IMG/VR virus record: IMGVR_UViG_3300032132_000006
Coordinates: 1 to 63,744 of that record
Strand: one strand, 5' to 3'
DNA: 63,744 nucleotides
DNA from: a virus
Lineage: Duplodnaviria > Caudoviricetes
In this document: positions 17,247 through 57,015 of the stretch, in pieces
Layout: each line of letters opens with the position of its first letter
Position numbering within the stretch: position 1 is the stretch's first letter
Program-made: the position numbers and the translations under genes
The notes under the pieces: model-generated
Seen by the model: only the letters and a program-made list of their open reading frames with translations
Databases searched by the model: none
Told to the model about the DNA's origin: nothing

Positions 17247-17412
17247 TGTGTTCTCCCCGTTGATTGTGGTCGGGAAGGTAGGATTCTAACCTACTCAGCT
17301 CTCGCGTCGGTTTTACAGACCGATGTGGCTCTACAACTCCACCGCTTCCCGAATTAAAGTTGGTGTGGACGACTCCATAGACTCCACCATAGGATCTACC
17401 GCTTAGGCTCAT
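17215..17412 (-). CDS. Hypothetical protein
   Basis: AAGGGA RBS before ATG 17412. Confidence 0.4.
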   Translation of the reverse strand: MSLSGRSYGGVYGVVHTNFNSGSGGVVEPHRSVKPTRELSRLESYLPDHNQRGEHNDRSTRLQQI

Positions 17413-22603: not shown

Positions 22604-22645
22604 ATTTTACCATAGTTGGCTTCGATATACATTAAACGTTATAAT
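22604..22645. promoter_or_regulatory. Divergent promoter pair: TGgTAAAAT (- strand, 22604-22612) and TATAAT (+ strand, 22640-22645)
   Basis: Located at a strand switch point; matches to the sigma70 -10 consensus. Confidence 0.6.
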
Positions 22646-22651
22646 GTCTGG

Positions 22652-23095
22652 ATGATAATCACGCAGCTACGCACATATTACCAAGATTATACCGAAGGCG
22701 AACTGTTCATCAACGGTGGCAAGCGCTGGTGCTGGACTCTTGAAGATGTCGGCAGACCGACAAATGTTAAAGTTAAGCACCAAACCTGCATCCCCGAAGG
22801 CCACTACAGCGTAGCTATCAATTACTCAAGCCGCTTTCAGCGCTACATGCTTCTCCTTTACAACCAAAAAAATAAAACTGTTCAGCAATCAGGTATAACG
22901 TTTACCGGCATCAGACCCCATGGGGTTAACGATGTCGATGATACGTCTGGATGCATCGGCCTAGCTTACCAAACTAATCATAACGGTATAGTATGGGACA
23001 AGGCTTCCGACGATTTGTTCCATCTCGTTAAGAAATTCATCGATCAAGGCGAGCGAATCGACTGGATCATCACTCAACAAAACAGCGCATCTTAA
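22652..23095 (+). CDS. DUF5675-family protein, putative endolysin/peptidoglycan enzyme
   Basis: TEGELFING...CWTLED...TCIPEG.Y...F.GIR.H..N...DT.GCI; ATG 6 nt after TATAAT. Confidence 0.75.
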   Translation: MIITQLRTYYQDYTEGELFINGGKRWCWTLEDVGRPTNVKVKHQTCIPEGHYSVAINYSSRFQRYMLLLYNQKNKTVQQSGITFTGIRPHGVNDVDDTSGCIGLAYQTNHNGIVWDKASDDLFHLVKKFIDQGERIDWIITQQNSAS

Positions 23096-23104
23096 GGATC
23101 CCCA

Positions 23105-23371
23105 GTGAAAAACACCGTACAGGAAGTCGTTACAGGCCCAGCAGCCCAAGTAGTAGTCGGAAGCACAGGAATTGCAGCGGCCCTCACTAGTATTATGGGG
23201 TATATCGAAAGCGGTGCAGCAGTCATCGCGCTGGTAGGCGGTGCGGTCATTGTAGTGTTCACCGCAATGCATGGATACAAACGACTACAGCACGACAAAT
23301 TAGAGACAAAAAAGCTCGCTCTAGAGGTTGAAGCACTAGAAAGAGCCAAGAAAGAATCCCCCTCCCCCTAA
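23105..23371 (+). CDS. Putative holin
   Basis: Two hydrophobic segments and a charged C-terminus, next to the DUF5675 gene. Confidence 0.6.
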   Translation: MKNTVQEVVTGPAAQVVVGSTGIAAALTSIMGYIESGAAVIALVGGAVIVVFTAMHGYKRLQHDKLETKKLALEVEALERAKKESPSP

Positions 23372-23426
23372 ATAAATCTATTTTATTTGCAGATTTCCTT
23401 GACTATCTCCTGTATTGGTATATATT
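23371..23426 (+). promoter_or_regulatory. Sigma70-type promoter TTGACT-N16-TATATT with AT-rich upstream element
   Basis: Near-copy of the promoter at 33588-33643. Confidence 0.75.
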
Positions 23427-23461
23427 AAGAGTGTACCACTAATTTTATTAAGGAGATTGAG

Positions 23462-23782
23462 ATGAAGGGTCAATTGCTTTTTGCCGTTACTGACCAGTTT
23501 TACATTATCCCGCTTCAAATAATTAGCGAAGAGGATATACCCGATGCTGGCATTAAAATAAAAACTGTCATCGTTGGGGACTCTATTCGTCACCAAGAAG
23601 TACATTATGAGCATTACTTTCAAGAGATGTGGATGGATGACGGTGTTATAAGTAGCTCTAGTGTCTTCTTTCTAGAGTCTTCTGCCAAAGCCTATGCTTG
23701 CGGCAAAATCAACGGGGCGATAGATATTAAAGAGCATGAACTTCAGCGATTACAGCAAAGACTCTTTGATCTAAATAATTAA
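23462..23782 (+). CDS. Hypothetical (probably early) protein
   Basis: AAGGAG RBS after the promoter. Confidence 0.65.
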   Translation: MKGQLLFAVTDQFYIIPLQIISEEDIPDAGIKIKTVIVGDSIRHQEVHYEHYFQEMWMDDGVISSSSVFFLESSAKAYACGKINGAIDIKEHELQRLQQRLFDLNN

Positions 23783-23799
23783 GACCAGAGGAGAACGAA

Positions 23800-24006
23800 A
23801 TGAACGCTTCCAAGAAAAACAGAATTTCCCACTCAATTGCCAAGGCCTTTGTGTGTGGATCTGTGATCCTGCTGACTATCTCTGGTGTGACTCTTTTGTC
23901 TATCGCTGCGGTGGTTGTTTGGTTCTACGGTGAAGACTTGTTGAGCGACCTATTGAGTGGTCACTTTGACTTGGTTCAAAAACTTCTTCCAAATCTTTGT
24001 AAGTAA
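23800..24006 (+). CDS. Small membrane protein
   Basis: GAGGAG RBS; TM segment. Confidence 0.6.
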   Translation: MNASKKNRISHSIAKAFVCGSVILLTISGVTLLSIAAVVVWFYGEDLLSDLLSGHFDLVQKLLPNLCK

Positions 24007-24014
24007 GGGGAAAA

Positions 24015-24191
24015 ATGATGAATGAACTAACTGACAACCAAAAGCAAATTATTGCTGACGCACAGGGTCGGCTCCTTCCTAGTGAGCGAGTGGCAGTTTC
24101 CATCGCTGCTGAGACTGGGAGCATTGAAGCTCTGGCTCGTTTCTTTGCTGAGGATGGTATTGACTTTAAAGGGGAAAGTAATGAATCTTAA
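24015..24191 (+). CDS. Hypothetical protein, 58 aa (MMNELTDNQKQ...), not in ORF track
   Basis: AAGGGG RBS. Confidence 0.6.
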   Translation: MMNELTDNQKQIIADAQGRLLPSERVAVSIAAETGSIEALARFFAEDGIDFKGESNES

Positions 24192-24423
24192 AAATTTCAG
24201 ATATAAGTATGACGAGAAAAACGATATCTCGATTATCCTTGAAAAGTCTATCAACTGGGATGACTGGGACGGTGATTCAATCGTTTACTCTGTCTTTGTT
24301 GAGTCTGTGAAGGACGGGGTGAGGGACGGCTCTGTGGAGCGGTTCGCAAGTCTGCCAGAGGCAGGACGGTATTTTGAATTAGAAGTTAATCTTTGGGTTG
24401 CGAAAAGAGTAGTGCGCGGTTGA
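24181..24423 (+). CDS. Hypothetical protein (start MNLKNF)
   Basis: GGGGA RBS before ATG 24181. Confidence 0.55.
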   Translation: MNLKNFRYKYDEKNDISIILEKSINWDDWDGDSIVYSVFVESVKDGVRDGSVERFASLPEAGRYFELEVNLWVAKRVVRG

Positions 24424-24745: not shown

Positions 24746-25144
24746 TTATAGCCCGTATTTTTGTTGAACCCCTATTATCCTTCCCTTAGCCAGTTTGTAC
24801 CGGCGTTTATCTTCTAGGCTCGCGTATACTCCTCGCTCTTCCTGTCTTCTGTATATTTTAACAACTGTCCTGTCAAGATCCAATAATTCTTTTACATCTC
24901 TGGGCATGTAGTTGGCATCACGCTCTAGTTTTTTTCCAAAATATTCTTCTAGGTCTACGCCCAGTGCTTGGTATAACTCCAGTCCTCCAGCTTCACAGAC
25001 ATAGCAGTAAGCGACGATAGGTCTATCCCTGCCTACATTAATCGACATGGCGAAATCTTTATCGTTGTGAACAGGGCATCTGCATATCCAGCCCTTGCCC
25101 CTTGGCTTTACGTTATCCCCCAGTGCTGCCAGTAATTGTCTCAT
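24746..25144 (-). CDS. Stand-alone primase-type (CHC2) zinc-binding domain protein
   Basis: CRCPVHNDK..AMS and YCYVC motifs; no TOPRIM/AEP catalytic domain; coupled to the helicase gene. Confidence 0.75.
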   Translation of the reverse strand: MRQLLAALGDNVKPRGKGWICRCPVHNDKDFAMSINVGRDRPIVAYCYVCEAGGLELYQALGVDLEEYFGKKLERDANYMPRDVKELLDLDRTVVKIYRRQEERGVYASLEDKRRYKLAKGRIIGVQQKYGL

Positions 25145-26652
25145 GCTGTTTTCCTGTTAGCGTACTTAATGTTAGCGTGTCTAATCCAGCCCATGGTGTC
25201 CTCGCCAATTTCTTTTGCAGAGTAGGGCTTTATTGCGTTGGGCCAAACGCCATACCTTGAGCGGTATTTGTTGGGTGCCCAGCCTGACTTATAATTTTTG
25301 TCCTTCCCGTACTTCAGTAATTCAGACAGGAACCTTGTTTTGTTTTCGACAGTATCTGCGGAGTTTAGTTTCTTTAATTCTTTTTGTTCCAGCTCCTGCA
25401 TCTCAACTAGCATCCGATTATCATCAGCCTGTCGCTCTTCTTCTGGCATCGTCCAGCCACAACCATCATCACCATCACAGGCTCTGCCGGTAATCAACTG
25501 GCTACAGTCGGGGCACTCTCTGGACTTCTTTTCTATCTCTTCTTTCTCTTTGGCCAGATCCGTTTCCCTGTAGGTTTTCTCCCCATCATCCAAGTACTCT
25601 GGCACCACATCTTTGGCCGGCCCGAATCGTGAGTAGTTTGAGGCGTGATCCAAGTAGATTGCGTGATCCTTCCCTTCGCTGGTTCTCATCAATCTCCCTG
25701 CACGCTGGACCCAAGAAATTAAACTGGCGACTGGATAGCAATCGACTATGCACTTCACAGACGGCGCATCGTAGCCGGTGTTCAATAATTTACAGCAGGA
25801 CAATACCTTGAACTCACCTCGATCATGAGCCTCGTACAGAGCCTGTCGATCCTCCTGTTTCATGTGGCAGTCTATATGTTCTGCCGTCACACCTGCTTTA
25901 CGGAATCGATTAACCAGTCCTTTAGACATTGCCTGCGACGGAGAGAACGCGATGGTCTGTGAATTCTCCCCGTACTCGAACCAGTTCTTGATTACGTTAC
26001 CCACCAGTGATGTGTGCTGCCGGTCAGATTCTTTTTCTAGGTCTTGAAATGAGTATGTATTAGGATCCGTTTTTCGGACATTAGATAAGTCTATACTTGC
26101 CCCCGCATAATACTTAACGGGGCAGAGATAACCTCTGGACTGTAGCTCTGCTGCGGTTATTGGCACCAGCAGGTTGTTGTATTTAGTTCCCAGTCCTTTC
26201 GAGTATGGTGTTGCGGTAAGTCCGATAATCGGCACCCTATCGTAAGCCTCGATAAATTTATCTATGACTCGATATTGTGTATGCGCCTCGTCTACTAAGG
26301 CCAGCTCGAACTCAGGTAATCGCTTGCCATGCTCACCTACCATCCTGTCTATGGTTTGGATTGATGCGATTTGAATTGGCGCCATTGGATTTGTTAGCGG
26401 GTGGTTTGCCTGCCTCACGCCAAAATTAATTCCCGCAGCCCTGAAGGCTACGATTGACTGCTCTACCAGTTGGGTGCGGTCAACAAAGAAAAACCCTCGT
26501 TTACCTTTGTCCTGACAACCCTTCATGATGTGGGCCGCTATGACTGTCTTACCCATCGCGCATGGAGCTGCGAGTATAGGTCTGTTTTTGCCCTGTCTAA
26601 TTGAGTCCCTGATTTGCTCTACTGCTTTTTCTTGATAGTCTCTAAGTCTCAT
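25141..26652 (-). CDS. SF2 DEAH-box helicase with C-terminal Zn finger
   Basis: LRDYQ Q-motif, APCAMGKT, DEAH, TAT, QRAGRLMR, CPDC. Confidence 0.92.
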   Translation of the reverse strand: MRLRDYQEKAVEQIRDSIRQGKNRPILAAPCAMGKTVIAAHIMKGCQDKGKRGFFFVDRTQLVEQSIVAFRAAGINFGVRQANHPLTNPMAPIQIASIQTIDRMVGEHGKRLPEFELALVDEAHTQYRVIDKFIEAYDRVPIIGLTATPYSKGLGTKYNNLLVPITAAELQSRGYLCPVKYYAGASIDLSNVRKTDPNTYSFQDLEKESDRQHTSLVGNVIKNWFEYGENSQTIAFSPSQAMSKGLVNRFRKAGVTAEHIDCHMKQEDRQALYEAHDRGEFKVLSCCKLLNTGYDAPSVKCIVDCYPVASLISWVQRAGRLMRTSEGKDHAIYLDHASNYSRFGPAKDVVPEYLDDGEKTYRETDLAKEKEEIEKKSRECPDCSQLITGRACDGDDGCGWTMPEEERQADDNRMLVEMQELEQKELKKLNSADTVENKTRFLSELLKYGKDKNYKSGWAPNKYRSRYGVWPNAIKPYSAKEIGEDTMGWIRHANIKYANRKTA

Positions 26653-26657
26653 CCCCG

Positions 26658-26828
26658 TTACCCTCTAGACGTTAATAGGTTTCCATTTTTGTCTCTGATC
26701 TGAATCATGGCTCTGCCACCAATGGCAATTCGCTGATTGACTGAGATGGGCAGGTGTAACTCAGTTACATGGCCGCACCATTCTAGTGCTTTTTTTATTG
26801 TTTTAACTTCGTGAGTGGATTCGGTCAT
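26658..26828 (-). CDS. Hypothetical protein
   Basis: GAGGG RBS before ATG 26828. Confidence 0.45.
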   Translation of the reverse strand: MTESTHEVKTIKKALEWCGHVTELHLPISVNQRIAIGGRAMIQIRDKNGNLLTSRG

Positions 26829-26851
26829 TTCTGACCCTCTTGGACATTCCA

Positions 26852-27058
26852 TTATTTTTTCCCCTTTCTTTTGGCTGGAATCTTAGCTTCGAATATTTTT
26901 CTTTTATCATCAGTAATGACACTGCCCTCTAATCTTCGCGCCCAACCAACTAGCGGTGGCCAAGGTAGCCCAAGGGCATTAACTTGTGATTTAGTCCAAG
27001 CACCTCCTTTAGTTTTGTTATCATTAATCCATTTTCTAGTAACTATCATAGTCTGCAC
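26852..27058 (-). CDS. Small basic hypothetical protein
   Basis: T.GGAWTK.Q..ALG..WPP..GW..RL.G pattern. Confidence 0.65.
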   Translation of the reverse strand: MQTMIVTRKWINDNKTKGGAWTKSQVNALGLPWPPLVGWARRLEGSVITDDKRKIFEAKIPAKRKGKK

Positions 27059-27065
27059 TCTGTAG

Positions 27066-27518
27066 GTTGTTTTGACCTTTACATACGAAAGGATTCAGAT
27101 TTCAGTGTAGGTTGGACAGAAGTAGCCTAAAGAAAGTGGCCAAACGACCACTAAACTAAAGGCAACAAAAAAACGAAATGGAACGAGTCACGAGCGCTTT
27201 TTTTGCCAGAGTCTCTCTCTCTGGTTAGATGCTTTTTCCTTTCGGTTCAGCAGGGCCATCTACAAATAGAGTCAGTTTGGGCAAGGATTTAACCAATGAA
27301 CCCGCTTAACTATTCGCTGCCACCCATTCAGGTTGTGCTGACAACTCAGTACCTGTTACTTACCTTCAGCACCGAATCGGCTTTATATGCTGGAGGTTGT
27401 TGTAGGTTGCTACTAGTAGACGGAAGGATATTAGATTACAATAAACATCTGCTTCGTAGGTGCAACTACGGAGTTTTCCCCAAAACCCTGCTGTTATTTA
27501 CGTGACAGCGGGGTTTTT
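27066..27518 (+). ncRNA. Putative large structured non-coding element (RNA or ssDNA origin structure)
   Basis: About 9 stems in 450 nt with G-U pairs favouring the + strand; ends in a terminator-like hairpin. Confidence 0.5.
27482..27518 (+). terminator. Intrinsic terminator-like hairpin
   Basis: AAAACCCTGCTGTTA-loop-TGACAGCGGGGTTTTT. Confidence 0.7.
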
Positions 27519-27579
27519 CTTTATCGGGTAGACTCATTTAAACAATAATACTCTCATCGAAAAAAATAGCAACCCTCAT

Positions 27580-27628
27580 AGGGGGGCATATTCGGCCACA
27601 TTAAGGGGGATCATTTTCGGCCACATTA
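27580..27628 (+). repeat. Tandem imperfect 24/25-bp repeat (AGGGGG..CAT.TTCGGCCACATTA x2)
   Basis: Copies at 27580-27603 and 27604-27628. Confidence 0.8.
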
Positions 27629-27862
27629 CAGCCTGATAGATTTAAGTGTTTTTAAGTCTCGCATACACCAGCCGCATGTAATTCCTCCACGCGCAACAAC
27701 CTTAAGCTCGTACTCCACCTGACTTTCCCCGTACCCGAAAAATTCTCCACTACAAAGCGTAGCTGGGCCCCCTGCGTTAGTGGGATCAACTAGGTGCCAC
27801 ACGGGGTTTTCAATTTCTTCGAGGTCATCATCTATAAGTACTTTCACCAATTCATGTGACAT
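27626..27862 (-). CDS. Hypothetical Zn-binding protein (start MSHELV)
   Basis: WH...TLC.GE...ITC..C; GGAG RBS. Confidence 0.6.
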   Translation of the reverse strand: MSHELVKVLIDDDLEEIENPVWHLVDPTNAGGPATLCSGEFFGYGESQVEYELKVVARGGITCGWCMRDLKTLKSIRL

Positions 27863-27863
27863 T

Positions 27864-28100
27864 TCAATCTCCTGCCAACTTAATGGCCATATTATGTAAC
27901 TTGGCATTGAACCATCTCCGTATCGCATAGCTGCGAATAAGAGAGATGATCATAAAGTATAGTGAGATCCACGCATTGGCTACTAGCGGAACGTGGATAT
28001 CAAACAGAGGGAATACCAGTAGCTGGGAACAAAACCCAACCACCAGCCCAATAACGATGTTAATTCCCGACTCATAGAGAGAGCTGAGCTTAGTTTGCAT
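27864..28100 (-). CDS. Conserved small phage membrane protein
   Basis: MQTK..S..ES..N...G......Q...FP.F...S..RSY..RRWFN pattern. Confidence 0.75.
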   Translation of the reverse strand: MQTKLSSLYESGINIVIGLVVGFCSQLLVFPLFDIHVPLVANAWISLYFMIISLIRSYAIRRWFNAKLHNMAIKLAGD

Positions 28101-46173: not shown

Positions 46174-46260
46174 ATGCGAATAGACTGGAATACAGTTGGT
46201 TTTTATTTTGTTTTAACGGCTATCATCCTGAATGCCGTCCTTCCTATTGTGATGGATTAG
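46174..46260 (+). CDS. Putative leaderless 28-aa membrane peptide MRIDWNTVGFYFVLTAIILNAVLPIVMD
   Basis: TGgTATAAT at 46160-46168 and ATG 5 nt later; single hydrophobic helix. Confidence 0.4.
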   Translation: MRIDWNTVGFYFVLTAIILNAVLPIVMD

Positions 46261-49200
46261 CTTTGTCGTAGTTCTTATTAAATCTATCCACGATAACCTC
46301 TATCCTTTTCTCGAATCGCTCTATCCTTTTCTCTTTTATCTTGTCAGACAGATTACGAAGCTCAACCTCTTTGATTTGCTTCCGCAGATTACGAAGTTGT
46401 TTCTCGGCAGTCTTTAGGCGAGAGGCTTGTCTGAGCTGCCCAGAATATTCCTTCCTGAACTTGATCTTCTCTTTGCCCCTTAGCGTAGCTGACTCAGCAG
46501 TTAATTGCTTTATCTCGTCGGCCCTGTCATAGAACCTAGACTGGTCGCCATACTGCGCCACCTTGCCACTGATTTTGCGGTAGAAAGGCTTCTCCCTATC
46601 TTCAATCTCTTCACCAAGAATTGTCTTCTCAGCGTACCCAGCAGACAGTGATGCGAACTTACCTGCACCACCCGTAACAAAGCTGAACAAATGATCAAGC
46701 GTATCTGGGGATACATCAATGAATCCTTTTCTGAATGCGGATCCTCCAGTTGCTTCGTTTACAAAACTTGATACCGCCTCCCAGTGAGGTTTGGCGTTCT
46801 TCTTCGCTAGTGCGCTATCTGGCAACTGAACTCCGAATGCAAAGTTTTCTTTGAATATCGATCCTCCGTAGAAGTTTTCATTAACAGCTAGTTGAGCGAA
46901 TGGCTTGCCTACGGTTGGGGTAGCAGTTTTGATTGCCATCTTAGCCGCATCATCAGACGATTCAAATCCTAACGGAGAGAACGATCCAAGAATACTCATT
47001 GCGACATGAGTGCCTAGCTCACCATACCCGCGATAAGAACTATTTTTCGCAGCCTCTGCTGTATCACCCAGCACATAGAATATATTAAATCCGTATGGAA
47101 GCGGGATAGTCCAGTAGTCAGCAGGATCATCGCTACCACCAAAGACGGACTTCATTATAACTATGTTTCTTTCACGAACATGGTTAGGAACTTTGTCATA
47201 CCAGCTCACACCATCATCATCATCATCAGATGCCATTCGATTAATCGTCGCCAGCACATACGCAGCGGCCACAATACCAGCAGAAAATGCCTGCACTTTC
47301 TTGGACTTCATTGCGCGAAGGAGAACAGCACTACCTTGAATAGATGCGTTAGAGAACATATAAAGAGAATTCATTACTGCACCAACCTCACCCTTGCGGT
47401 TGAAGTTAACCGTTAGGTTCTTGGCTAATGATGCGGCCTTCTTTCTGGTTAGGCCAGCTTCAATCCCATGACGGTACACAGATAATCTAACTGCGTTCTC
47501 GACTGCGGTATTAGCATTCTCTACAAAGTCTTTGACGCCATCTTTAAAAACACGAAGATTACTTATAACCGACTTCCCTGTCTCAATAGATCCTGCTTTG
47601 GCTGTGGCTCTCCCAGTGGCTAAGTCTTTTATATTACTGATCACCTGCCCACTTCTGGCCATGGATACCATGGCGTTTAACTCACTCGCTTGCTGGTCTA
47701 TTTCTTTCATATCAAACCAGCCGGTCTTGGCACCATCTTCTCTGAATTGGTCAAACGACTGCTGCCATTCTAAAGCAGATCCAGTTAATTCCTTTCCTCT
47801 CAATGAGGCGTGTATAGCTCTCATCGCAGAAGGAATATCCTTCAGCATCTTGCCCACTAACTTCTTACCTTGCGCCCTTCCTCCGCGCAGATCCTGTTCT
47901 CCCATTAAAGCAAACACCGCAGTCTGTACGTCACGCGCCACGTTCGATACTAAGAACTCAGGGTTGTACGATGTACTCATGGCAGATAGGTATCGAGTCA
48001 TAGTTCCCAATGTCTGGGTGAATATGTTCATTGGCTCTGGACCCATGTTCTGCATGGCACGATTTAATCGCTGATCCTTAATGTGAATGAAGTAAGTTTT
48101 GCCGTCCTTCTTGGTGGCGTAGTATTTTTTAGACCCATCATCATTCTTGGCATCCAGCATATTCTCACTAACTTCATCTACCTCACCTTTAACCCAGCCT
48201 CTGGTCTTGGCAGGATTATCGTCAGAGAAAACCTCCCAGTACTCAGGGTTTGGATTATTCTCAACCATCTTGAGGAATACGTTACCAACATCATTTTTGC
48301 GTGAGCGTATAATCGTTTCGGTGATATCCTTGATAGCGTGAAGCGTAGGAGATTCAGCAGTGCTTCTGCGGCCCATAGCCTTTAAGGATTCTTTGCCACG
48401 AATATCGAAGCCCTTACCAATATTTCCACCAGTACTGCTTTCTTCATTTGTAGCAAGCCCCTTTAATGGGACGTAATTCTTATACGCTCCTTCCCACGCA
48501 TCTGTGATTTCGTTAGCCTGCAAGCCATCCCTCATGAGCTGACGCTTGTATTCAAGCATTCCATAAACATGGTCAGCCAACTCATTGAGCTGCGCTCGCT
48601 TAGAAGGAGTCACCATATTGAGAACCCGCTCTGCCTCCATGTCAGTCATACCAGAGCCGCCATCAGGCATCTCTCGATTAATCTTTCTTATGTGGGCGTT
48701 ACGCTCTTTAGCGTGATTGGCAATCAACCACTCATCCAGTTCCTCTCTTTCGACTTCGTATTTTGCCAGCCCTTCTGCTAACGGTTTGATTGAGCCTTCA
48801 GATAATACTCGAAGATCCTCTTCTGTCTTTCCGTAGAAAGCCTCTTCTGCCAAGTAAGTATTCTCAACCTCTGGAAGATCACCCCTTACTTTTTCGATTT
48901 CCTTTTGAGTCATCAACACAGGCCTAAACTTATCTTGGAATGTGCGGATAGCTGCACCAGTTAGTTTTTCTACTGGAGCATCGAAGCCATGTTCATCATC
49001 CAAGCTAAACAGAATATTATCGCTCTCTGTTTCTGTTGGATCAAAGGCTGCATTGACTGAGCGTATGTTTTTTGGGTCGAAGACAGCGACATCTTCTATC
49101 TCAGGATTCTGCTGCATAAAATCATTAACGTCAGTGTAACCTGTCACCTCTCCAATGCTATCACTGTACATATCTAAAGAAGTATAGGTGCCCGCCTTTT

Positions 49201-52200
49201 CTGCCGCATCCTTATAGGCTCTATTTAAGATTTCATCGTATTGAGTCTCAAGCTCCTTCACTGTATCTTGAGCCGGTTCCAGCGTCTGAGCGAGTTGGGC
49301 AATTTCTTCCTTTGTGACAGACCCAATATTATGAACAATCTTGTCTGTTATTTTTTCTACATCTCGTTGAGCGTTATTGAATTTACGGATCGTTAGCTTA
49401 TCCTGAGTGGATAATACAAGATTACGATCATTCACAGGGACGGCATTTTCAGACCAAGACATCGTTATCTTTTCACCAGTAGATGTTTCATAGCTGAACT
49501 CACCAGTATCTCTTAGGCTTTTTTCCACCTCTTCTCGCGTGAATGAGTCGCGACCCCGAACGGCGTGATCATATCCCATCTCTAGCAGATGCTCCCGCAC
49601 CTCAGTTCCCCCGCTCACTTGCCTAGCAACCTCCCGCCACACTTTATGTGGTGCGGCCTTTCCTAGCCGCAAATAAACTGGTGTAATTGTATTGCCGTCT
49701 ATACCATCGCGATATGCAGCTTGCACGCTTGGAGCTATACCGAACCAGTGGCCATTGAATGGCCTATCAGGGTCAGACGCAGGGAGGCGGTCATTATCAA
49801 ATCCAGCACCTTCTATGCCGCCAGTGTTCGCATGATAATAGACCGTACTGGTATCAAAGCCCTGCTCCTCAGCCCTAGCCATTCTAGATGCTTTATCCAT
49901 TGGTAGGTCTTTGTCTAGGCTGAATTGTTTTTCGGCCTGCCGTTGTTCGTCATTAACGGCCTCAATGGTTACAGCATTCTCATCCCATATGACGTAGTTG
50001 TGTGTGCCCTCGCCCTCTGTGCGACTTTGATTATCTAAATAGCGGAGTCCTTTGATGCCCAAGTCACCTAGAAATAAACTGGCTCCTCTTTCTTCTTTGG
50101 TGGTTGATATTGATAGGTTGCCTTTCGCAACCCCTTCGTACAAGCTCTTCCCGTCCATGTTCCAGAACGCAGATTCCTGTTCATTGATCCAGTCTTGCGC
50201 TCCCTGCTTGGCAATCTTGGCAGACCCTATGAATTCCAACCTTACTTTTTTACCGTCGCGAGTAACATCGACTGCAAATGTTGGACCGCCATCATAATCA
50301 AGGAATTTCTTCCTTAGTCTTTCTGGGGCATCAGAGTACTTGTCATACGGGTACGGCTCTCCGGCCTTGCCTATTTTGGAGGCACGCAGTCTCTCTGGGA
50401 GAAGTTTGTTTAGCTTACTTACATTCTTTTGTATGGCGCTCTTGACCATCTCAGGTTGCTGACTAAGCTTCTTATCCCAATCCAACAGCTCGTTATCTTC
50501 TGGTATGTCTACTTGGTAGAGTTGGCCATGCGCTTTAATTGTAACCGAATCAACATCAAAGTCCTTAAGCTTGCTCATCCCCTTTGCCTTAAACTCAGCG
50601 TTAGTAACCCTAAATGCGTCACCCACAATCTCAGTTAGCACCTCATCCCATGTAGTAGAGCCGTCTTGAATAGCACTCATCACCAATGGATCACGCTTGA
50701 TGTGTGCGACTTCTCTTGCTATAAATTCTTCAGGGGTTTTCGGGAATCCCATTTTATCCCCGTTGAGATAAATATCGTAACTTCCTTCGCTTAACTTATC
50801 CCGATACCATTCAGCAATATTCTTCCTGCCAGCAAAGTACATTCCCCAGCCATAGGCTTGAGCGCCTTCACCAGATCCCATCGCATCCAAACTAAATTTG
50901 TCAAACACATGAGGTGTGCCGTGGTAAGCAGTCATCCACTCAGGAATAAGCGACCCTATGCCAGCCTCTTGTGGGCCTGCCAAGAACTCTTCAGATCGAG
51001 ATAGGATAAGATCAATGTTCGTCATACTGATTGGATTAAAGCCCAAGGCGCGTAATGCATTCTTGAGCATCTCGCGTACCTTACGCATGAACGATCCAAC
51101 CACTCCATCCTTTGCTCTCTGCTCAGCAGCAATGGCAATGAACTCTTTGATTAATGTCTCTCTGGATGCGTTTGGATTTCTCCGTATCGCCTCTGCTCTG
51201 ATAGCATCGAAATTCTTGCCGCCCTTCTCCCTTAGCGAATCATATAGATCGCCAACAGCAGACCAGTCTTCGATAATATTATTTACACCAACATGACCAA
51301 TAAGCTCATGAGCAAGAGTGACCTGTGCGTCCTGTGTATTTTCTAGGTGATCAACAACAATGGTTGCTGTGTCGCCTATAGCGAATCCTTTAGGGCGTTT
51401 GCCTTTAGGGATTGCAGCTTGGACTGACTCAGGTAATTCGTGAGAATAAAGTATTTCAACTTTCACGCCCAGCTTATCACTAATGTTCTCTAACATAGGA
51501 GCAACAGCGGCAACAGCTTGGTCTTTGGTAAACTTAGTTTTAGCCTTACCTTGGAGAGAATTCTCTACTCGTAGTTGTGGCCCTTGTACTGTTTCGGTAT
51601 CAGGTGTTGTGGGAGCTGCTGTCTCTCTTCCGCTCCCAGATCCTGTACTGACTTCGCCTCTGGGTGTGCCAGTTCCAGATAGTTCTTCAGAGTAACTGGA
51701 ATCTGGTTTGCTTTCATCCATTGTTCCAACTGATCCGATCCAGTCTGGTTCGTTGATCCCGCCTGCATGTTCATGAATAATACTCCTCGTTTCTTCTAGT
51801 GTTGCATCACCTGCCTTGTATTTTTCCCAAGCAGCTTTAGCAAATTCTGTGTTTTTCTTTTGCCCTTTATATCCAGCAGTAAATAAACCTCTCACCGCCT
51901 CCCATGTAATGGACTGCATCTGTCTTGGCAATATGCCCCGCTCTGCCGCTGCTCTTCTGTATGCCTCAGCAAAGAAAGGATAGGTTCCACTTAATCCTGC
52001 AACAGTAGATCCTGCGCTACCAGTACCACCAAGATTCTGCTCAACTTCTTTTGACTTTCCTGATAGTGGCTGAATTAATCCCGCGCCAACAGCATGAGTG
52101 TCTATCGTTACGTCACCATGCTTTCCATTGGGAGAGATGATATTGTTGTAAAAGTTTCTTACCTTGTGAGCGCTACCCATGGATGCACTAATGTTTTCCA

Positions 52201-54259
52201 TGCTTGGATCACGAAGGACTGACACAGCCTTGGTTATTTCACTTAACGATCCCCAGCCGGTAGCTTTACGCTTTCCGACTTTACTTACCGCCCAGTCAAG
52301 GAAGTATCCTTCTGGAGATATAATCTTGTGGCCTCTAGGGTGGTGAGCTTCATCATAGGCTCTGATCCATGCTGCTGCCTCAACATTGTTCTCAATATTG
52401 GACAGTGACTTGCCTCTAATGTTTCCATGCAGGATCTTGTTAGCGTCAGAATAATAAATCCTATTCGCAGCATCTTCCATCTCAGGAGTCCAGATGGTGT
52501 CTTGGTTATTAGTAAATACGTCCAGCACTCTTTCGGCCAAACTTACATTCATAAACCAATCTTTCTGTGGACTCAATGATGCCATTACACCAGCAATAGC
52601 TGTGTCCTGAATACCGTATTTCTCTGACCATCTGTCAGCAATGTTTCTAGCACCGTCATACCATAGGTGACTACGCTCTCTTGTATCTGCTGGAACGCGA
52701 TCATACAACCAAAGAAGATTATCTTTAACGTGATCTATAAAGAATTCAGCCAACGCACTATGGGTTGATCCCTCTGGTGCAGGTCTTGAATTTGAATAGC
52801 TAGATACCAGCTCTGCATTTTTACCAAATGATTTAGGCTCGCTCTTAGCTGCCTCTAACCCAACAACTAAGTTTTGCTTTATTGGATCCTCAACTGGCTT
52901 CTTGGAAGTAGGATACCTAGTAGAAATACCATCGTCATCTCTGGCTAAACTAAATTGAACCTCTTCCCCTTCTCTTCTAGGAAGATCCTGTGGGCCGTCC
53001 TTATTTAACTCAGTTACTTCTGCGTCAGATAATATGCGAACGACTTTCATCTCGCCGCCAATCATCCACTCACCCGTCATGTTAGGGTTTGTTTTGTACT
53101 TGTAGTACCCGCCAGTAGGAACCTGATCTGTTATATGGGCGGTACCCACATTCATGGTTCCATCTTTCTTTTTGGTTGCCCGCTTATTAGCTTCTGTCTG
53201 CCAGTCAACATCATCACGCATTTGGATCTCTGCCCATACATGATATTGTGGCCGGTAGTCTGGAGCCTTGGCCCCTTTGGATTTGCCGCCAATGTGAGAG
53301 GCCACTGGTTTTGTTCCTGCGTGCCACCCACCCCTAACAGCGAGAGGCCCGATAGATGACTTAACTTTACCCTTGTCTGTAAGTGCGCCCATCTCTGCAT
53401 TCACCCATGTGCCTACTGGGACAGACTGGTTGCTATTAACAAATAGCGGGAACAATTGATTTGGCGATTTCTTTTTGGTCTTGAATAACTTATAAGCAGT
53501 GACCGTCTTGCCGGTTTCCTGATCATCGTCAAGACTCCACTCGATAGTCTCACTATCCTTGACACTCTGCTCTGCTTCAGCATTGACTTCTTCTTGTGTC
53601 GGCTGGGCTTGCTTGGCACCCTTCAGCTCCATATAAACAACATCAGGCGTTCCGTCAGCCTCTTCCCATCCTTCGGGCTTATACTGCTCATCCCACGTAT
53701 CTCTGCCCACTTCGACAAAGCCATGCTTGGCATATGACTTGGTAAGGAATCCCTCGAAAGCATCCAGCTTAGTTGCGCCTAATTCAATTGCTTTTGGCAT
53801 TAGGGTATCGAGCAATCCTTTGACATTGGAATCAGCAGACTTAAAGACAGAAACTAGATCGCCATCGCTCTTGATAGCAAAGCCAATTAATCCATCTGCT
53901 GACAGGTAATTGGTCATGTCTGCGTATTCGGCCTCACTGTACTGATGCACTGAGCCGCCATGAGGCAAAGTCTCTTTAGCCTTCCCGATAGCCTTGTGAA
54001 ATTTAGATGCTGTGACGGGCTTAAATGAGGGCTTAGCAGACTGCCCTCTGGTTGGGGCAATACCACCCGCTTTGGTGATTTGATCTACCGCATTGGTGCG
54101 CTCTGTCCTAATCTCTTTGGTAAGGTCGGCAACAGCAGATTCATCAGCTTCGTCTTTGTTATAGCCCTCTTCAATATACATCTTCGACAGATCTTTGGCG
54201 CGTGCAGCGTCCTCTGCCGTAATGTTCAGTTTCTTTATGCAAGATGCGAGTGAAGCCAT
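46244..54259 (-). CDS. Giant polyvalent injected protein (GNAT-like, HhH-glycosylase-like, zincin metallopeptidase, two ART-like domains, LPD38-like C-terminus)
   Basis: LDAF..FL..SY..HGF; LSPQ..W..NV and VTIDTH; AHELIGH; YHGTPH.FDKF...GEGAQAYGWG.YF; YYHANT...VFDPKNIRS.NAAFDP; VNFNRKGE...YMF.NA.IQG. Confidence 0.85.
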   Translation of the reverse strand: MASLASCIKKLNITAEDAARAKDLSKMYIEEGYNKDEADESAVADLTKEIRTERTNAVDQITKAGGIAPTRGQSAKPSFKPVTASKFHKAIGKAKETLPHGGSVHQYSEAEYADMTNYLSADGLIGFAIKSDGDLVSVFKSADSNVKGLLDTLMPKAIELGATKLDAFEGFLTKSYAKHGFVEVGRDTWDEQYKPEGWEEADGTPDVVYMELKGAKQAQPTQEEVNAEAEQSVKDSETIEWSLDDDQETGKTVTAYKLFKTKKKSPNQLFPLFVNSNQSVPVGTWVNAEMGALTDKGKVKSSIGPLAVRGGWHAGTKPVASHIGGKSKGAKAPDYRPQYHVWAEIQMRDDVDWQTEANKRATKKKDGTMNVGTAHITDQVPTGGYYKYKTNPNMTGEWMIGGEMKVVRILSDAEVTELNKDGPQDLPRREGEEVQFSLARDDDGISTRYPTSKKPVEDPIKQNLVVGLEAAKSEPKSFGKNAELVSSYSNSRPAPEGSTHSALAEFFIDHVKDNLLWLYDRVPADTRERSHLWYDGARNIADRWSEKYGIQDTAIAGVMASLSPQKDWFMNVSLAERVLDVFTNNQDTIWTPEMEDAANRIYYSDANKILHGNIRGKSLSNIENNVEAAAWIRAYDEAHHPRGHKIISPEGYFLDWAVSKVGKRKATGWGSLSEITKAVSVLRDPSMENISASMGSAHKVRNFYNNIISPNGKHGDVTIDTHAVGAGLIQPLSGKSKEVEQNLGGTGSAGSTVAGLSGTYPFFAEAYRRAAAERGILPRQMQSITWEAVRGLFTAGYKGQKKNTEFAKAAWEKYKAGDATLEETRSIIHEHAGGINEPDWIGSVGTMDESKPDSSYSEELSGTGTPRGEVSTGSGSGRETAAPTTPDTETVQGPQLRVENSLQGKAKTKFTKDQAVAAVAPMLENISDKLGVKVEILYSHELPESVQAAIPKGKRPKGFAIGDTATIVVDHLENTQDAQVTLAHELIGHVGVNNIIEDWSAVGDLYDSLREKGGKNFDAIRAEAIRRNPNASRETLIKEFIAIAAEQRAKDGVVGSFMRKVREMLKNALRALGFNPISMTNIDLILSRSEEFLAGPQEAGIGSLIPEWMTAYHGTPHVFDKFSLDAMGSGEGAQAYGWGMYFAGRKNIAEWYRDKLSEGSYDIYLNGDKMGFPKTPEEFIAREVAHIKRDPLVMSAIQDGSTTWDEVLTEIVGDAFRVTNAEFKAKGMSKLKDFDVDSVTIKAHGQLYQVDIPEDNELLDWDKKLSQQPEMVKSAIQKNVSKLNKLLPERLRASKIGKAGEPYPYDKYSDAPERLRKKFLDYDGGPTFAVDVTRDGKKVRLEFIGSAKIAKQGAQDWINEQESAFWNMDGKSLYEGVAKGNLSISTTKEERGASLFLGDLGIKGLRYLDNQSRTEGEGTHNYVIWDENAVTIEAVNDEQRQAEKQFSLDKDLPMDKASRMARAEEQGFDTSTVYYHANTGGIEGAGFDNDRLPASDPDRPFNGHWFGIAPSVQAAYRDGIDGNTITPVYLRLGKAAPHKVWREVARQVSGGTEVREHLLEMGYDHAVRGRDSFTREEVEKSLRDTGEFSYETSTGEKITMSWSENAVPVNDRNLVLSTQDKLTIRKFNNAQRDVEKITDKIVHNIGSVTKEEIAQLAQTLEPAQDTVKELETQYDEILNRAYKDAAEKAGTYTSLDMYSDSIGEVTGYTDVNDFMQQNPEIEDVAVFDPKNIRSVNAAFDPTETESDNILFSLDDEHGFDAPVEKLTGAAIRTFQDKFRPVLMTQKEIEKVRGDLPEVENTYLAEEAFYGKTEEDLRVLSEGSIKPLAEGLAKYEVEREELDEWLIANHAKERNAHIRKINREMPDGGSGMTDMEAERVLNMVTPSKRAQLNELADHVYGMLEYKRQLMRDGLQANEITDAWEGAYKNYVPLKGLATNEESSTGGNIGKGFDIRGKESLKAMGRRSTAESPTLHAIKDITETIIRSRKNDVGNVFLKMVENNPNPEYWEVFSDDNPAKTRGWVKGEVDEVSENMLDAKNDDGSKKYYATKKDGKTYFIHIKDQRLNRAMQNMGPEPMNIFTQTLGTMTRYLSAMSTSYNPEFLVSNVARDVQTAVFALMGEQDLRGGRAQGKKLVGKMLKDIPSAMRAIHASLRGKELTGSALEWQQSFDQFREDGAKTGWFDMKEIDQQASELNAMVSMARSGQVISNIKDLATGRATAKAGSIETGKSVISNLRVFKDGVKDFVENANTAVENAVRLSVYRHGIEAGLTRKKAASLAKNLTVNFNRKGEVGAVMNSLYMFSNASIQGSAVLLRAMKSKKVQAFSAGIVAAAYVLATINRMASDDDDDGVSWYDKVPNHVRERNIVIMKSVFGGSDDPADYWTIPLPYGFNIFYVLGDTAEAAKNSSYRGYGELGTHVAMSILGSFSPLGFESSDDAAKMAIKTATPTVGKPFAQLAVNENFYGGSIFKENFAFGVQLPDSALAKKNAKPHWEAVSSFVNEATGGSAFRKGFIDVSPDTLDHLFSFVTGGAGKFASLSAGYAEKTILGEEIEDREKPFYRKISGKVAQYGDQSRFYDRADEIKQLTAESATLRGKEKIKFRKEYSGQLRQASRLKTAEKQLRNLRKQIKEVELRNLSDKIKEKRIERFEKRIEVIVDRFNKNYDKANPSQ

Positions 54260-56705: not shown

Positions 56706-57015
56706 CCCCGTACTCCACGTTCATATCTGCACTTTCAATTCTGTTCTGGCCATTACGCTCAATATTTCCAATGTGGACCGTCTTGATTAATGGCCTATCG
56801 CCGGCCGATATATTTATACCCTTGATGGCCTCTATAAGTTGTTGATTTGTATCGATAATTGCATCCATCAGTTCTGTGGAATGGCCGGCCGTTTGCTGCG
56901 CTACAGTTGGAGCCGGTTTTGTAGGCGCGACCTCCGCTCTTTTCTTGGTAAGTATGCGGGTATCACCCTCATCCTTTAACCTAGAGTATTCGCTGTTGGA
57001 TATTCGTCTAGCCAC
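56698..57015 (-). CDS. Hypothetical protein
   Basis: Operon packing; ER..QNRI.S C-terminal hairpin. Confidence 0.55.
   Translation of the reverse strand: MARRISNSEYSRLKDEGDTRILTKKRAEVAPTKPAPTVAQQTAGHSTELMDAIIDTNQQLIEAIKGINISAGDRPLIKTVHIGNIERNGQNRIESADMNVEYGDE

Follow-up and report, generated by a model that had tools for sequence, protein, structure and literature searches.

A predicted leader and countertranscript region heading the helicase module of an uncultured marine tailed phage

What does a tailed phage keep in the longest stretch of its genome that encodes no recognisable protein? The DNA analysed here (hereafter the window) is the whole of the 63,744-bp virus record IMGVR_UViG_3300032132_000006 (Duplodnaviria; Caudoviricetes), which is complete, with direct terminal repeats, and the sequencing runs that hold this phage are marine or seawater DNA metagenomes only. 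Its largest gap free of open reading frames (ORFs) measures 567 nt (27059-27625), as an earlier reading of the bare sequence (the original prediction) had claimed, and lies directly upstream of the genes for an SF2 helicase and a primase-type zinc-ribbon protein. These are carried on the - strand, which is the coding strand from ~29.7 kb down to 0.2 kb. The original prediction saw in the gap one structured non-coding RNA of ~450 nt made from the + strand. To a different arrangement we would give about an even chance: that the gap is a composite control region, in which a - strand leader of the helicase operon is combined with a + strand countertranscript, the two being laid out like RNA I/II of ColE1 or CopA of R1.

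In such a region a - strand sigma-70-type promoter (27572-27545), situated behind two 23-bp repeats, would start an untranslated leader of ~490 nt that runs into two small genes (A and B), the SF2 helicase gene and the primase-type zinc-ribbon gene. A two-hairpin + strand RNA of ~78 nt (~27447-27524) would begin ~90 nt inside this leader, head back towards the promoter and stop at an intrinsic terminator (27482-27518); being antisense within the leader, it would be fully complementary to leader positions ~+15 to +90. The promoter-distal leader (27060-27345), directly ahead of gene A, would form at least six helices, one of them crossing another. The small RNA would pair with the nascent leader and alter its folding, stability or read-through, and this pairing would set the level of replication-gene expression, as it does with plasmid countertranscripts. 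The features concerned are as follows.

27545-27572, - strand: sigma-70-like promoter TTGCTA-16-TATTAT, 9/12 matches; predicted leader start near 27538
27050-27538, - strand: putative 5' leader, ~490 nt long, of the operon (gene A, gene B, helicase and primase-type zinc ribbon), deduced from the promoter position and the layout in related families
27447-27524, + strand: candidate small RNA (countertranscript) of ~78 nt, with hairpin 1 at 27451-27474, a terminator hairpin at 27482-27517 and a U-tract; start predicted
27437-27442, + strand: -10-like TACAAT, read from the sequence, which aligns with TAAAAT of the related locus L002
27362-27397, + strand: hairpin ACCTTCAGCA/TGCTGGAGGT with an inner CCG/CGG stem, present in the + strand minimum-energy fold and weakened on the - strand
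27581-27628, no strand assigned: two 23-bp direct repeats, 87% alike and 25 bp apart, just upstream of the - strand -35 and overlapping the stop codon of the upstream gene

Folding is very unevenly distributed over the gap. Taken as a whole, its + strand folds better than all of 100 shuffled controls (z -3.88), and on the - strand 5 of the 100 shuffles are as good (z -1.90). This excess is limited to 27351-27540, where the + strand reaches -65.8 kcal/mol (z -5.28; none of 200 shuffles as good) and the - strand -46.0 kcal/mol (z -2.14; 3 of 200), the + strand being the stronger because both large stems hold G-U pairs that become A-C on the - strand. For 27055-27350, 142 of the 200 shuffled sequences fold as well on the + strand (z +0.59) and 68 on the - strand (z -0.34). 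The expectation that the element would outfold its shuffled controls is consequently realised to the right, on the + strand above all, and on neither strand to the left. Most of the stems originally proposed (27135-27152, 27205-27225, 27226-27262, 27362-27397 and 27452-27473) are indeed present in the sequence, as is the terminator at 27482-27518 with its T-tract on the + strand. A four-way junction closed by the helix GTTGTTTT/AAAGGCAAC, and the hairpins at 27076-27092 and 27108-27129, find no support either in the minimum-energy fold or in the comparison with a related locus, L004, described below. The assertion that every non-Watson-Crick pair is G-T on the + strand is correct for the large right-hand stems and has exceptions in the left-hand part, where A27264/C27315 and C27140/A27147 are A-C on the + strand and would be G-U on the - strand. 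The hairpin at 27362-27397 holds one G-U pair on the + strand (A-C on the -) and is not conserved in L002.

The gap matches no Rfam family. Over the whole window only a tRNA exceeds the gathering threshold of Rfam 15; with E values up to 10 admitted, the interval 26900-27750 gave four sub-threshold matches, all over the terminator, the best being to mir-1305 (23.2 bits, against a threshold of 63). Ten related loci gave no Rfam match, and neither the gap nor six related loci contain a transfer-messenger RNA or an additional tRNA. A + strand ORF of 69 amino acids (aa) at 27296-27505 was considered as a gene and rejected: it has no Pfam or PHROG family, and its homologues show indels across its stretch that are not multiples of three.

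To place the gap among its relatives we have aligned 42 relatives of the helicase and retrieved 311 viral contigs, of which 80 were kept. With the gap as an nhmmer query, just two of these 80 loci match: L004 (helicase 54% identical) over gap positions 18-289, with an E value of 2e-18, and L002 (helicase 57% identical) over gap positions 331-486, with an E value of 1e-5. Expressed in window coordinates, L004 shares 27060-27345 (part 1) and L002 shares 27390-27545 (part 2). Part 1 is co-inherited with gene A, both being found in L004; L002 has no gene A and does have gene B (42% identity). Judged from these matches, the gap element is a mosaic whose halves have been inherited separately. Other searches added little. 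Blastn of 26600-28000 against cultured phages found no match, and tblastn of the helicase against them gave a best identity of 32%, so that the helicase module has no close cultured relatives. A related-locus search from the single helicase protein gave no matches, a metagenome scan with the helicase alignment found no copy of the window element (0 of 65) among at least 65 loci, and three DNA runs held no usable variants across the gap. The nearest of the helicase relatives listed is 70% identical and sits on a 6.3-kb contig. Three DNA pattern scans of viral contigs recovered the L004 contig again, plus one GC-rich contig, L084, which was discarded as a chance match since its stem positions do not pair.

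The comparison of part 1 with L004 gives six helices comprising 42 pairs, with 98.8% of the cells paired. Of these pairs, 13 are changed on both sides, compared with 0-1 when the partners are slid by 1-3 columns, and none of 500 shuffles reaches the observed value, all these pairs being counted on the same two sequences from which the structure was derived. The original prediction had called for a check of covariation, and compensatory changes are seen in this pair of sequences. Its view of the element as non-coding is likewise sustained, because the indels of part 1 relative to L004 are of 1, 2 and 14 nt. Over 27060-27345 the global identity to L004 reaches 61%; the helicase DNA has 58% and gene A 53.5%. 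The helices of part 1 are these.

27135-27152, no strand assigned: helix a of 5 bp, with both sides changed in 2 pairs relative to L004
27205-27225, no strand assigned: helix b of 7 bp, with both sides changed in 2 pairs
27226-27262, no strand assigned: helix c, TAGATG/CATCTA (27226-27231/27257-27262), 6 bp, 2 pairs changed on both sides
27263-27316, no strand assigned: helix d, a long hairpin, with 4 pairs of the outer stem changed on both sides; inner GGG/CCC and GG/CC
27248-27340, no strand assigned: helix e, CAGCA (27248-27252)/TGCTG (27336-27340), 2 pairs changed on both sides; full helix 27248-27256/27332-27340

Helix e crosses helix c, so that a pseudoknot is possible. On the - strand helix a extends to 7 bp with a G-U pair, and it scored there as terminator-like. 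Just past its copy of part 1, L004 carries two ORFs (L004:1754-2853, on the - strand of the locus), one of 255 and one of 119 aa, that run against the helicase operon and occupy the place of part 2 of the window; neither has a Pfam or PHROG family.

Part 2 is where the candidate small RNA would be made. The interval 27447-27524 of the + strand has a minimum free energy of -35.6 kcal/mol (z -6.35; none of 200 shuffles as good), and a single fold accounts for 54% of the ensemble. The terminator scan scored 16 pairs for 27482-27517 on the + strand, with the T-tract on that strand as well; what one would look for in a countertranscript, namely a terminator-ended small RNA gene on the strand opposite to replication genes, has a candidate here in the 16-pair terminator and the fold of z -6.35. 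L002 has the same two-hairpin layout (z -4.11), with the core of hairpin 1, CGUAG/CUACG, conserved between the two and a terminator stem of different sequence whose T-tract is on the same strand. At the place in L002 that aligns with the -10-like TACAAT, the same strand carries TTGAAA-17-TAAAAT (10/12 matches). Of the functions originally suggested for the RNA, that of an antisense regulator ending at the 27482-27518 terminator is the best supported, and what finds no support is the single + strand molecule of ~450 nt.

For the predicted leader, too, L002 offers a counterpart: its helicase strand carries TTGTAA-17-TAGAGT at the same distance from its terminator as the window promoter. In the coordinates of a shared extract, the - strand promoter lies at 89-116 in the window and 96-124 in L002, the terminator at 148-190 and 155-199, and the opposite-strand -10 at ~219-224 and 224-229, respectively. 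The core of the 23-bp repeats, GTGGCCGAA, containing GTGGCC(A/G)AA, stands at 27591-27602 and 27616-27627 and recurs inverted ~450 bp away at 27133-27144, inside the hairpin 27135-27152. The repeats and the inverted core could be candidate sites of one regulator, and L002 has a repeat pair of its own, read from its sequence, upstream of its helicase-strand promoter. Within the leader the - strand has no ORF of 30 aa or more; the longest of its small ORFs has 23 aa, and these lack ribosome-binding sites. There is also a weaker - strand promoter (TTGCAC-16-TATTGT, 7/12) that would start at ~27431, in which case the two transcripts would be divergent and would not overlap.

The families of related helicase loci provide a wider view of this layout. 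In most of the helicase relatives the 2.2 kb upstream of the helicase include a stretch of 300-650 nt without helicase-strand ORFs, and these upstream stretches fall into nucleotide-conserved families, of which eight (c1-c8) were compared with the window as profiles, without any link being found. For 7 of the 8 pairs compared, conservation is higher in the gap than in the adjoining helicase DNA (for example 89.4% vs 75.6%). A helicase-strand sigma-70-type promoter stands exactly at the onset of conservation in all seven c2 loci (TTGCAA-17-TAGAAT or a variant), in 2/2 c5 loci and in 5/11 c1 loci; five of the other c1 extracts end before that point and L090 is ambiguous. The opposite strand has a promoter 65-125 nt from an opposite-strand terminator in 10/11 c1, 7/7 c2, 4/4 c4 and 2/2 c5 loci, and in L002. 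In c4 these promoters have 10/12 matches. Over the set as a whole the hexamers are conserved and the spacer, as noted for c1 in particular, is variable in sequence at fixed length. At least four other families have, at the same place, a helicase-strand promoter, a conserved non-coding stretch of 450-500 nt and, at its 5' end, a short opposite-strand promoter-terminator unit. The positions of the promoters in these relatives imply a design in which a long helicase-strand leader or RNA would be met by a short countertranscript complementary to its first 55-80 nt. On the predicted coordinates given above, the window and L002 both fit this design in their geometry. The opposite-strand terminators had at one stage been taken for the ends of long antisense RNAs, an interpretation that the promoter analysis of the relatives has corrected.

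A terminator scan of 82 non-identical loci points the same way. Within 2.2 kb upstream of the helicase the opposite strand has 56 strong terminator-like sites, in 50 loci, and the helicase strand has 16, in 15 loci; these counts are not independent events, since the loci are related to one another. Elsewhere the corresponding figures are 8 vs 17 further upstream, 5 vs 1 inside the helicase gene and 11 vs 23 downstream. Two families illustrate the conservation involved. The c2 loci (L040:3478-4018, L038, L044, L046, L089, L107 and L026) have a non-coding element of ~450 nt directly upstream of the helicase that shows 81-89% identity between contigs, compared with 72-76% for their helicase DNA, and that has no Rfam match. 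The -35 of its helicase-strand promoter lies in the loop of a covarying hairpin, and its opposite-strand promoter reads TTGCGY-17-TAAACT. The c1 loci (L029, L098, L054, L076, L041 and others) have an element of ~400-450 nt with a long-range helix, columns 90-97 pairing with 274-280, that shows 2-6 compensatory changes per pair, the first five pairs having them in 4-6 of the 11 sequences at each. A second covarying pairing in c1, GGTGATCC/GGATCACC in some members and AGGCAACC/GGTTGCCT in others, would form a pseudoknot. The nhmmer profile of the 11 c1 sequences has no match in the window gap at E values up to 0.1. Family c1 resembles the window element, as predicted here, in its place at the head of helicase and zinc-ribbon genes, its helicase-strand promoter, its long-range compensatory helices, its short opposite-strand promoter-terminator unit at the 5' end and its lack of an Rfam match; it differs in having no profile similarity to the window and in its helix topology, which is nested in c1 and crossing in the window. 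By sequence, the window element is a separate family, known from three contigs.

Antisense-RNA control of replication genes is textbook material for plasmids, the details of ColE1, R1 and pT181 being long established, and among phages lambda has its OOP RNA. ColE1 (RNA I/II), R1 (CopA/CopT), pT181 and pMV158 all place a short, terminator-ended antisense RNA inside the 5' leader of a replication gene, heading for the leader promoter, and the gap is predicted to do the same. Antisense units of the type predicted in the gap and its relatives, 65-125 nt long with a promoter of their own, would end at or near the leader start as plasmid countertranscripts do; both RNA partners fold into stem-loops in the plasmid systems, as they would here, and the putative leader of ~490 nt is near the size of the 555-nt RNA II of ColE1. 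Publications that bear on this comparison concern RNAII of pMV158 (PMC4485353) and staphylococcal plasmids (PMC5703833). The likeness is one of layout, no sequence similarity having been found between plasmid countertranscripts and the window. Moreover, unlike the plasmid systems, the replicon here is a 63.7-kb tailed marine phage with terminal repeats, the genes downstream encode an SF2 helicase and a zinc-ribbon protein and no Rep initiator, and the target of the small RNA is ~400 nt from the first start codon. Lambda OOP, likewise a short terminator-ended RNA, is directed against a phage early operon and lies immediately ahead of the replication genes. It overlaps the cII coding region at the 3' end, whereas the small RNA proposed here would overlap non-coding leader only, its end (~27518-27526) falling 108 nt short of the upstream stop codon at 27626. 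The large ornate RNAs of phages and prophages, GOLLD and ROOL (PMC12286853), are comparable as conserved, multi-helix, non-coding phage sequences of several hundred nucleotides. The window element differs from them in having no Rfam match and in being thermodynamically ordinary over its long part; it also adjoins a gene start, and a leader is the better reading of it.

How well does the combination of leader and countertranscript stand up? Several observations tell against it. The transcripts, their starts and their strands are all predicted from sequence. The - strand promoter has only 9/12 matches, in a scan that performs at chance level (1 site found, 2.7 expected), and the small RNA has no recognisable -35 in the window: TAGTAG stands at 17 nt, and the promoter scan shows nothing of the TTG type. 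Countertranscript loops typically carry a YUNR motif, which loop 1 of the small RNA (GUGCAA) does not have. On the - strand, the terminator hairpin would come ~20 nt past the predicted start, with a UUUU tail, so that either read-through would be needed or the hairpin would be an attenuator. As drawn on the + strand, the strand on which the structure was derived, the helices of part 1 hold 7 G-U cells and 1 A-C cell, and the folding energies of part 1 are equal on both strands. Each half has only one homologue (L004 for part 1 and L002 for part 2), and sequence similarity between the related families and the window is undetectable, so that the argument from their layout is one of analogy; as already said, those loci are also related among themselves. 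As to the strand of part 1, a symmetric-extension rule gives 4 G-U against 3 A-C cells (our own tally from the alignment), and each of the three A-C cases faces a Watson-Crick pair in the other sequence, which is how an exchange of G-U and Watson-Crick pairs on the - strand would look. The better-folding strand varies among the relatives: z is -0.57 on the equivalent of the window + strand and -4.36 on the helicase strand in L002, and -2.47 and -2.97, respectively, in L004. Strand calls from G-U versus A-C counts and from alifold energies, for the window pair and for c1-c5, were contradictory or weak and have not been used.

That the gap might instead yield one structured + strand RNA of ~450 nt (27066-27518), antisense to all flanking genes, ended by the terminator and acting as a primer, sponge or trans-regulator, we judge improbable. 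The better + strand fold of the gap as a whole, the orientation of the T-tract and the 7 to 1 excess of G-U over A-C in the six helices as drawn would all suit such a molecule, and so would the repetition on the + strand of the short sequence GTAGGTTG, sponge RNAs being known for repeated binding motifs. It would have to start near 27060, however, where the + strand shows no promoter (its best -10 candidate, TATCAT at 27044, comes with a 2/6 -35), and to include 27055-27350, which folds worse on this strand than the average shuffle. Its two halves have been inherited separately. The families c1, c2, c4 and c5 have a short unit on the opposite strand (65-125 nt), their long conserved part beginning at the helicase-strand promoter, and in L002 and further relatives it is the helicase strand that folds better. 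Quite improbable, in our estimate, is that the gap is ordinary punctuation: a bidirectional terminator of the upstream operon, then a promoter and a long functionless spacer, the likeness to L004 and L002 being the consequence of ancestry or recombination. The hairpin 27482-27517, with an A-tract before it and a T-tract after it, could well work in both directions, and the thermodynamic ordinariness of 27055-27350 on both strands, together with the single homologue per half, would be understandable in a spacer. A functionless spacer accounts poorly for 13 compensatory pairs against 0-1 in the slid controls, for an identity to L004 that exceeds those of the helicase DNA and gene A, for gaps that in the related families beat the helicase gene in conservation in 7 of 8 pairs, and for opposite-strand promoter-terminator units conserved in at least four families plus L002.

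A replication origin, which the original prediction had also named in the form of a folded single strand, is a rather unlikely alternative, one that overlaps in part with the combination of leader and countertranscript. It draws on a further feature of the gap.

27061-27409, + strand: repeated motif TGTAGGTTG at 27061, 27106 and 27401, with TGGAGGTTG at 27391

These motifs and the A7/T7 tracts that are also present in the gap would serve for protein binding and unwinding, with the gene A protein as one conceivable ligand. Either single-stranded DNA would fold into the hairpins, or the - strand transcript would be a primer like ColE1 RNA II, controlled by the small RNA. Three of the five exact copies of GTAGGTTG in the genome are inside the gap, as is one near-copy, and L004 has a repeated motif of its own with one copy just before its gene A homologue. 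The position of the gap directly upstream of the helicase and the primase-type zinc ribbon, the lack of a recognised initiator or polymerase among the ORFs scanned, the co-inheritance of gene A with 27060-27345 and the resemblances of the gene A model described below, which are a lead only, all lean the same way. The four copies of the 9-nt motif, on the other hand, are irregularly spaced (45, 285 and 10 nt), and TGTAGGTTG is not conserved in L004 or L002. In an iteron-type origin the direct repeats would be regularly spaced and would adjoin an AT-rich unwinding region and an initiator gene. The long-range or crossing helices with compensatory changes, in the window as in c1, suit a folded RNA better than protein sites on duplex DNA, and the guanine-cytosine (GC) skew changes sign near 29 kb, along with gene direction, and not at the gap. 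More specifically, it is conceivable, and in our opinion distinctly unlikely, that the - strand transcript of ~490 nt is an RNA II-like primer or origin transcript that would pass the template to the adjacent helicase and to a primase zinc-ribbon protein devoid of a catalytic domain, with the small + strand RNA as an RNA I-like negative controller.

The genes in the immediate neighbourhood of the gap are the following.

27626-27928, - strand: upstream gene, 100 aa, phrog_15583; stop codon at 27626
26852-27049, - strand: gene A, 65 aa, likely start at the ATG at 27049
26658-26852, - strand: gene B, 64 aa, 42% identical to an ORF of L002
25141-26652, - strand: SF2 helicase (ResIII 1e-20, Helicase_C 5e-14, phrog_16 1e-69)
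24746-25144, - strand: 132-aa protein with a DnaG-type zinc ribbon (Zn_ribbon_DnaG 21.8 bits, under the 24.9 cut-off; phrog_47 primase 1.5e-6)

Gene A probably starts at the ATG at 27049, since the N-terminus of its product is conserved in L004. It is 53% identical to the ORF that adjoins the L004 copy of 27060-27345, is absent from L002 and falls into no family of Pfam or PHROG. In its Atlas model there are resemblances to accessory domains that are fused to GIY-YIG nucleases, TnsA-like or sigma-70 region 4 proteins and RNase H proteins, with template-modelling (TM) values of 0.55-0.76 that are all under the tool's naming bar; on this model the product may be a small nucleic-acid-binding protein. 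Outside the helicase module, the large terminase (TerL) shares 64% identity with its counterpart in Serratia phage Parlo and 56-60% with those of Bcep22-like podophages, and so ties the structural module to these phages; no helicase module is annotated in the first 24 kb of Parlo. Neither an initiator nor a DNA polymerase was recognised among the ORFs scanned against Pfam and PHROG.

Several other features of the genome may be recorded here. A tRNA-Tyr (GTA) gene (17267-17351, - strand) adjoins the large terminase gene. Within the otherwise - strand half of the genome, five + strand ORFs (159, 88, 106, 68 and 123 aa) occupy 22616-24423, the first of them matching phrog_1501; the GC skew is near zero over this block, which may be an opposite-strand gene cassette. 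A polyvalent protein of 2,671 aa (46244-54259, - strand) has ART-PolyVal (ADP-ribosyltransferase), LPD38 and DUF7178 domains, and a protein of 904 aa (57008-59722, - strand) has a weak match (1.4e-13) to part of the PHROG of N4-type virion RNA polymerases.

In view of its sequence and of the analogies drawn above, the gap would represent a known kind of control in a new sequence version, situated in an unusual host, the helicase module of a marine tailed phage. To our knowledge, no antisense-RNA control of SF2-helicase replication modules in uncultured marine phages is on record, and the literature search brought up no such case. More than 10,000 candidate structured RNAs of viruses are catalogued in PMC10690425, and pieces of the gap families could be among them. 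The window adds a sequence family to a recurring design, consisting of a promoter, a long, conserved and folded leader and a short countertranscript, that recurs in no fewer than four other families; by the criterion of opposite-strand terminators, 50 of the 82 related loci have it. Should the transcripts of the leader and the small RNA be as predicted, they would give a handle on the timing of replication in these phages and a set of compact RNA regulator/target pairs. They would also provide a test case for the mode of action of large leader RNAs, be it in cis on expression or directly on the initiation of replication. If the transcript should prove to be an origin primer as well, the helicase module would, throughout a large group of uncultured phages, be headed by a ColE1-style RNA-controlled origin in several unrelated sequence versions.

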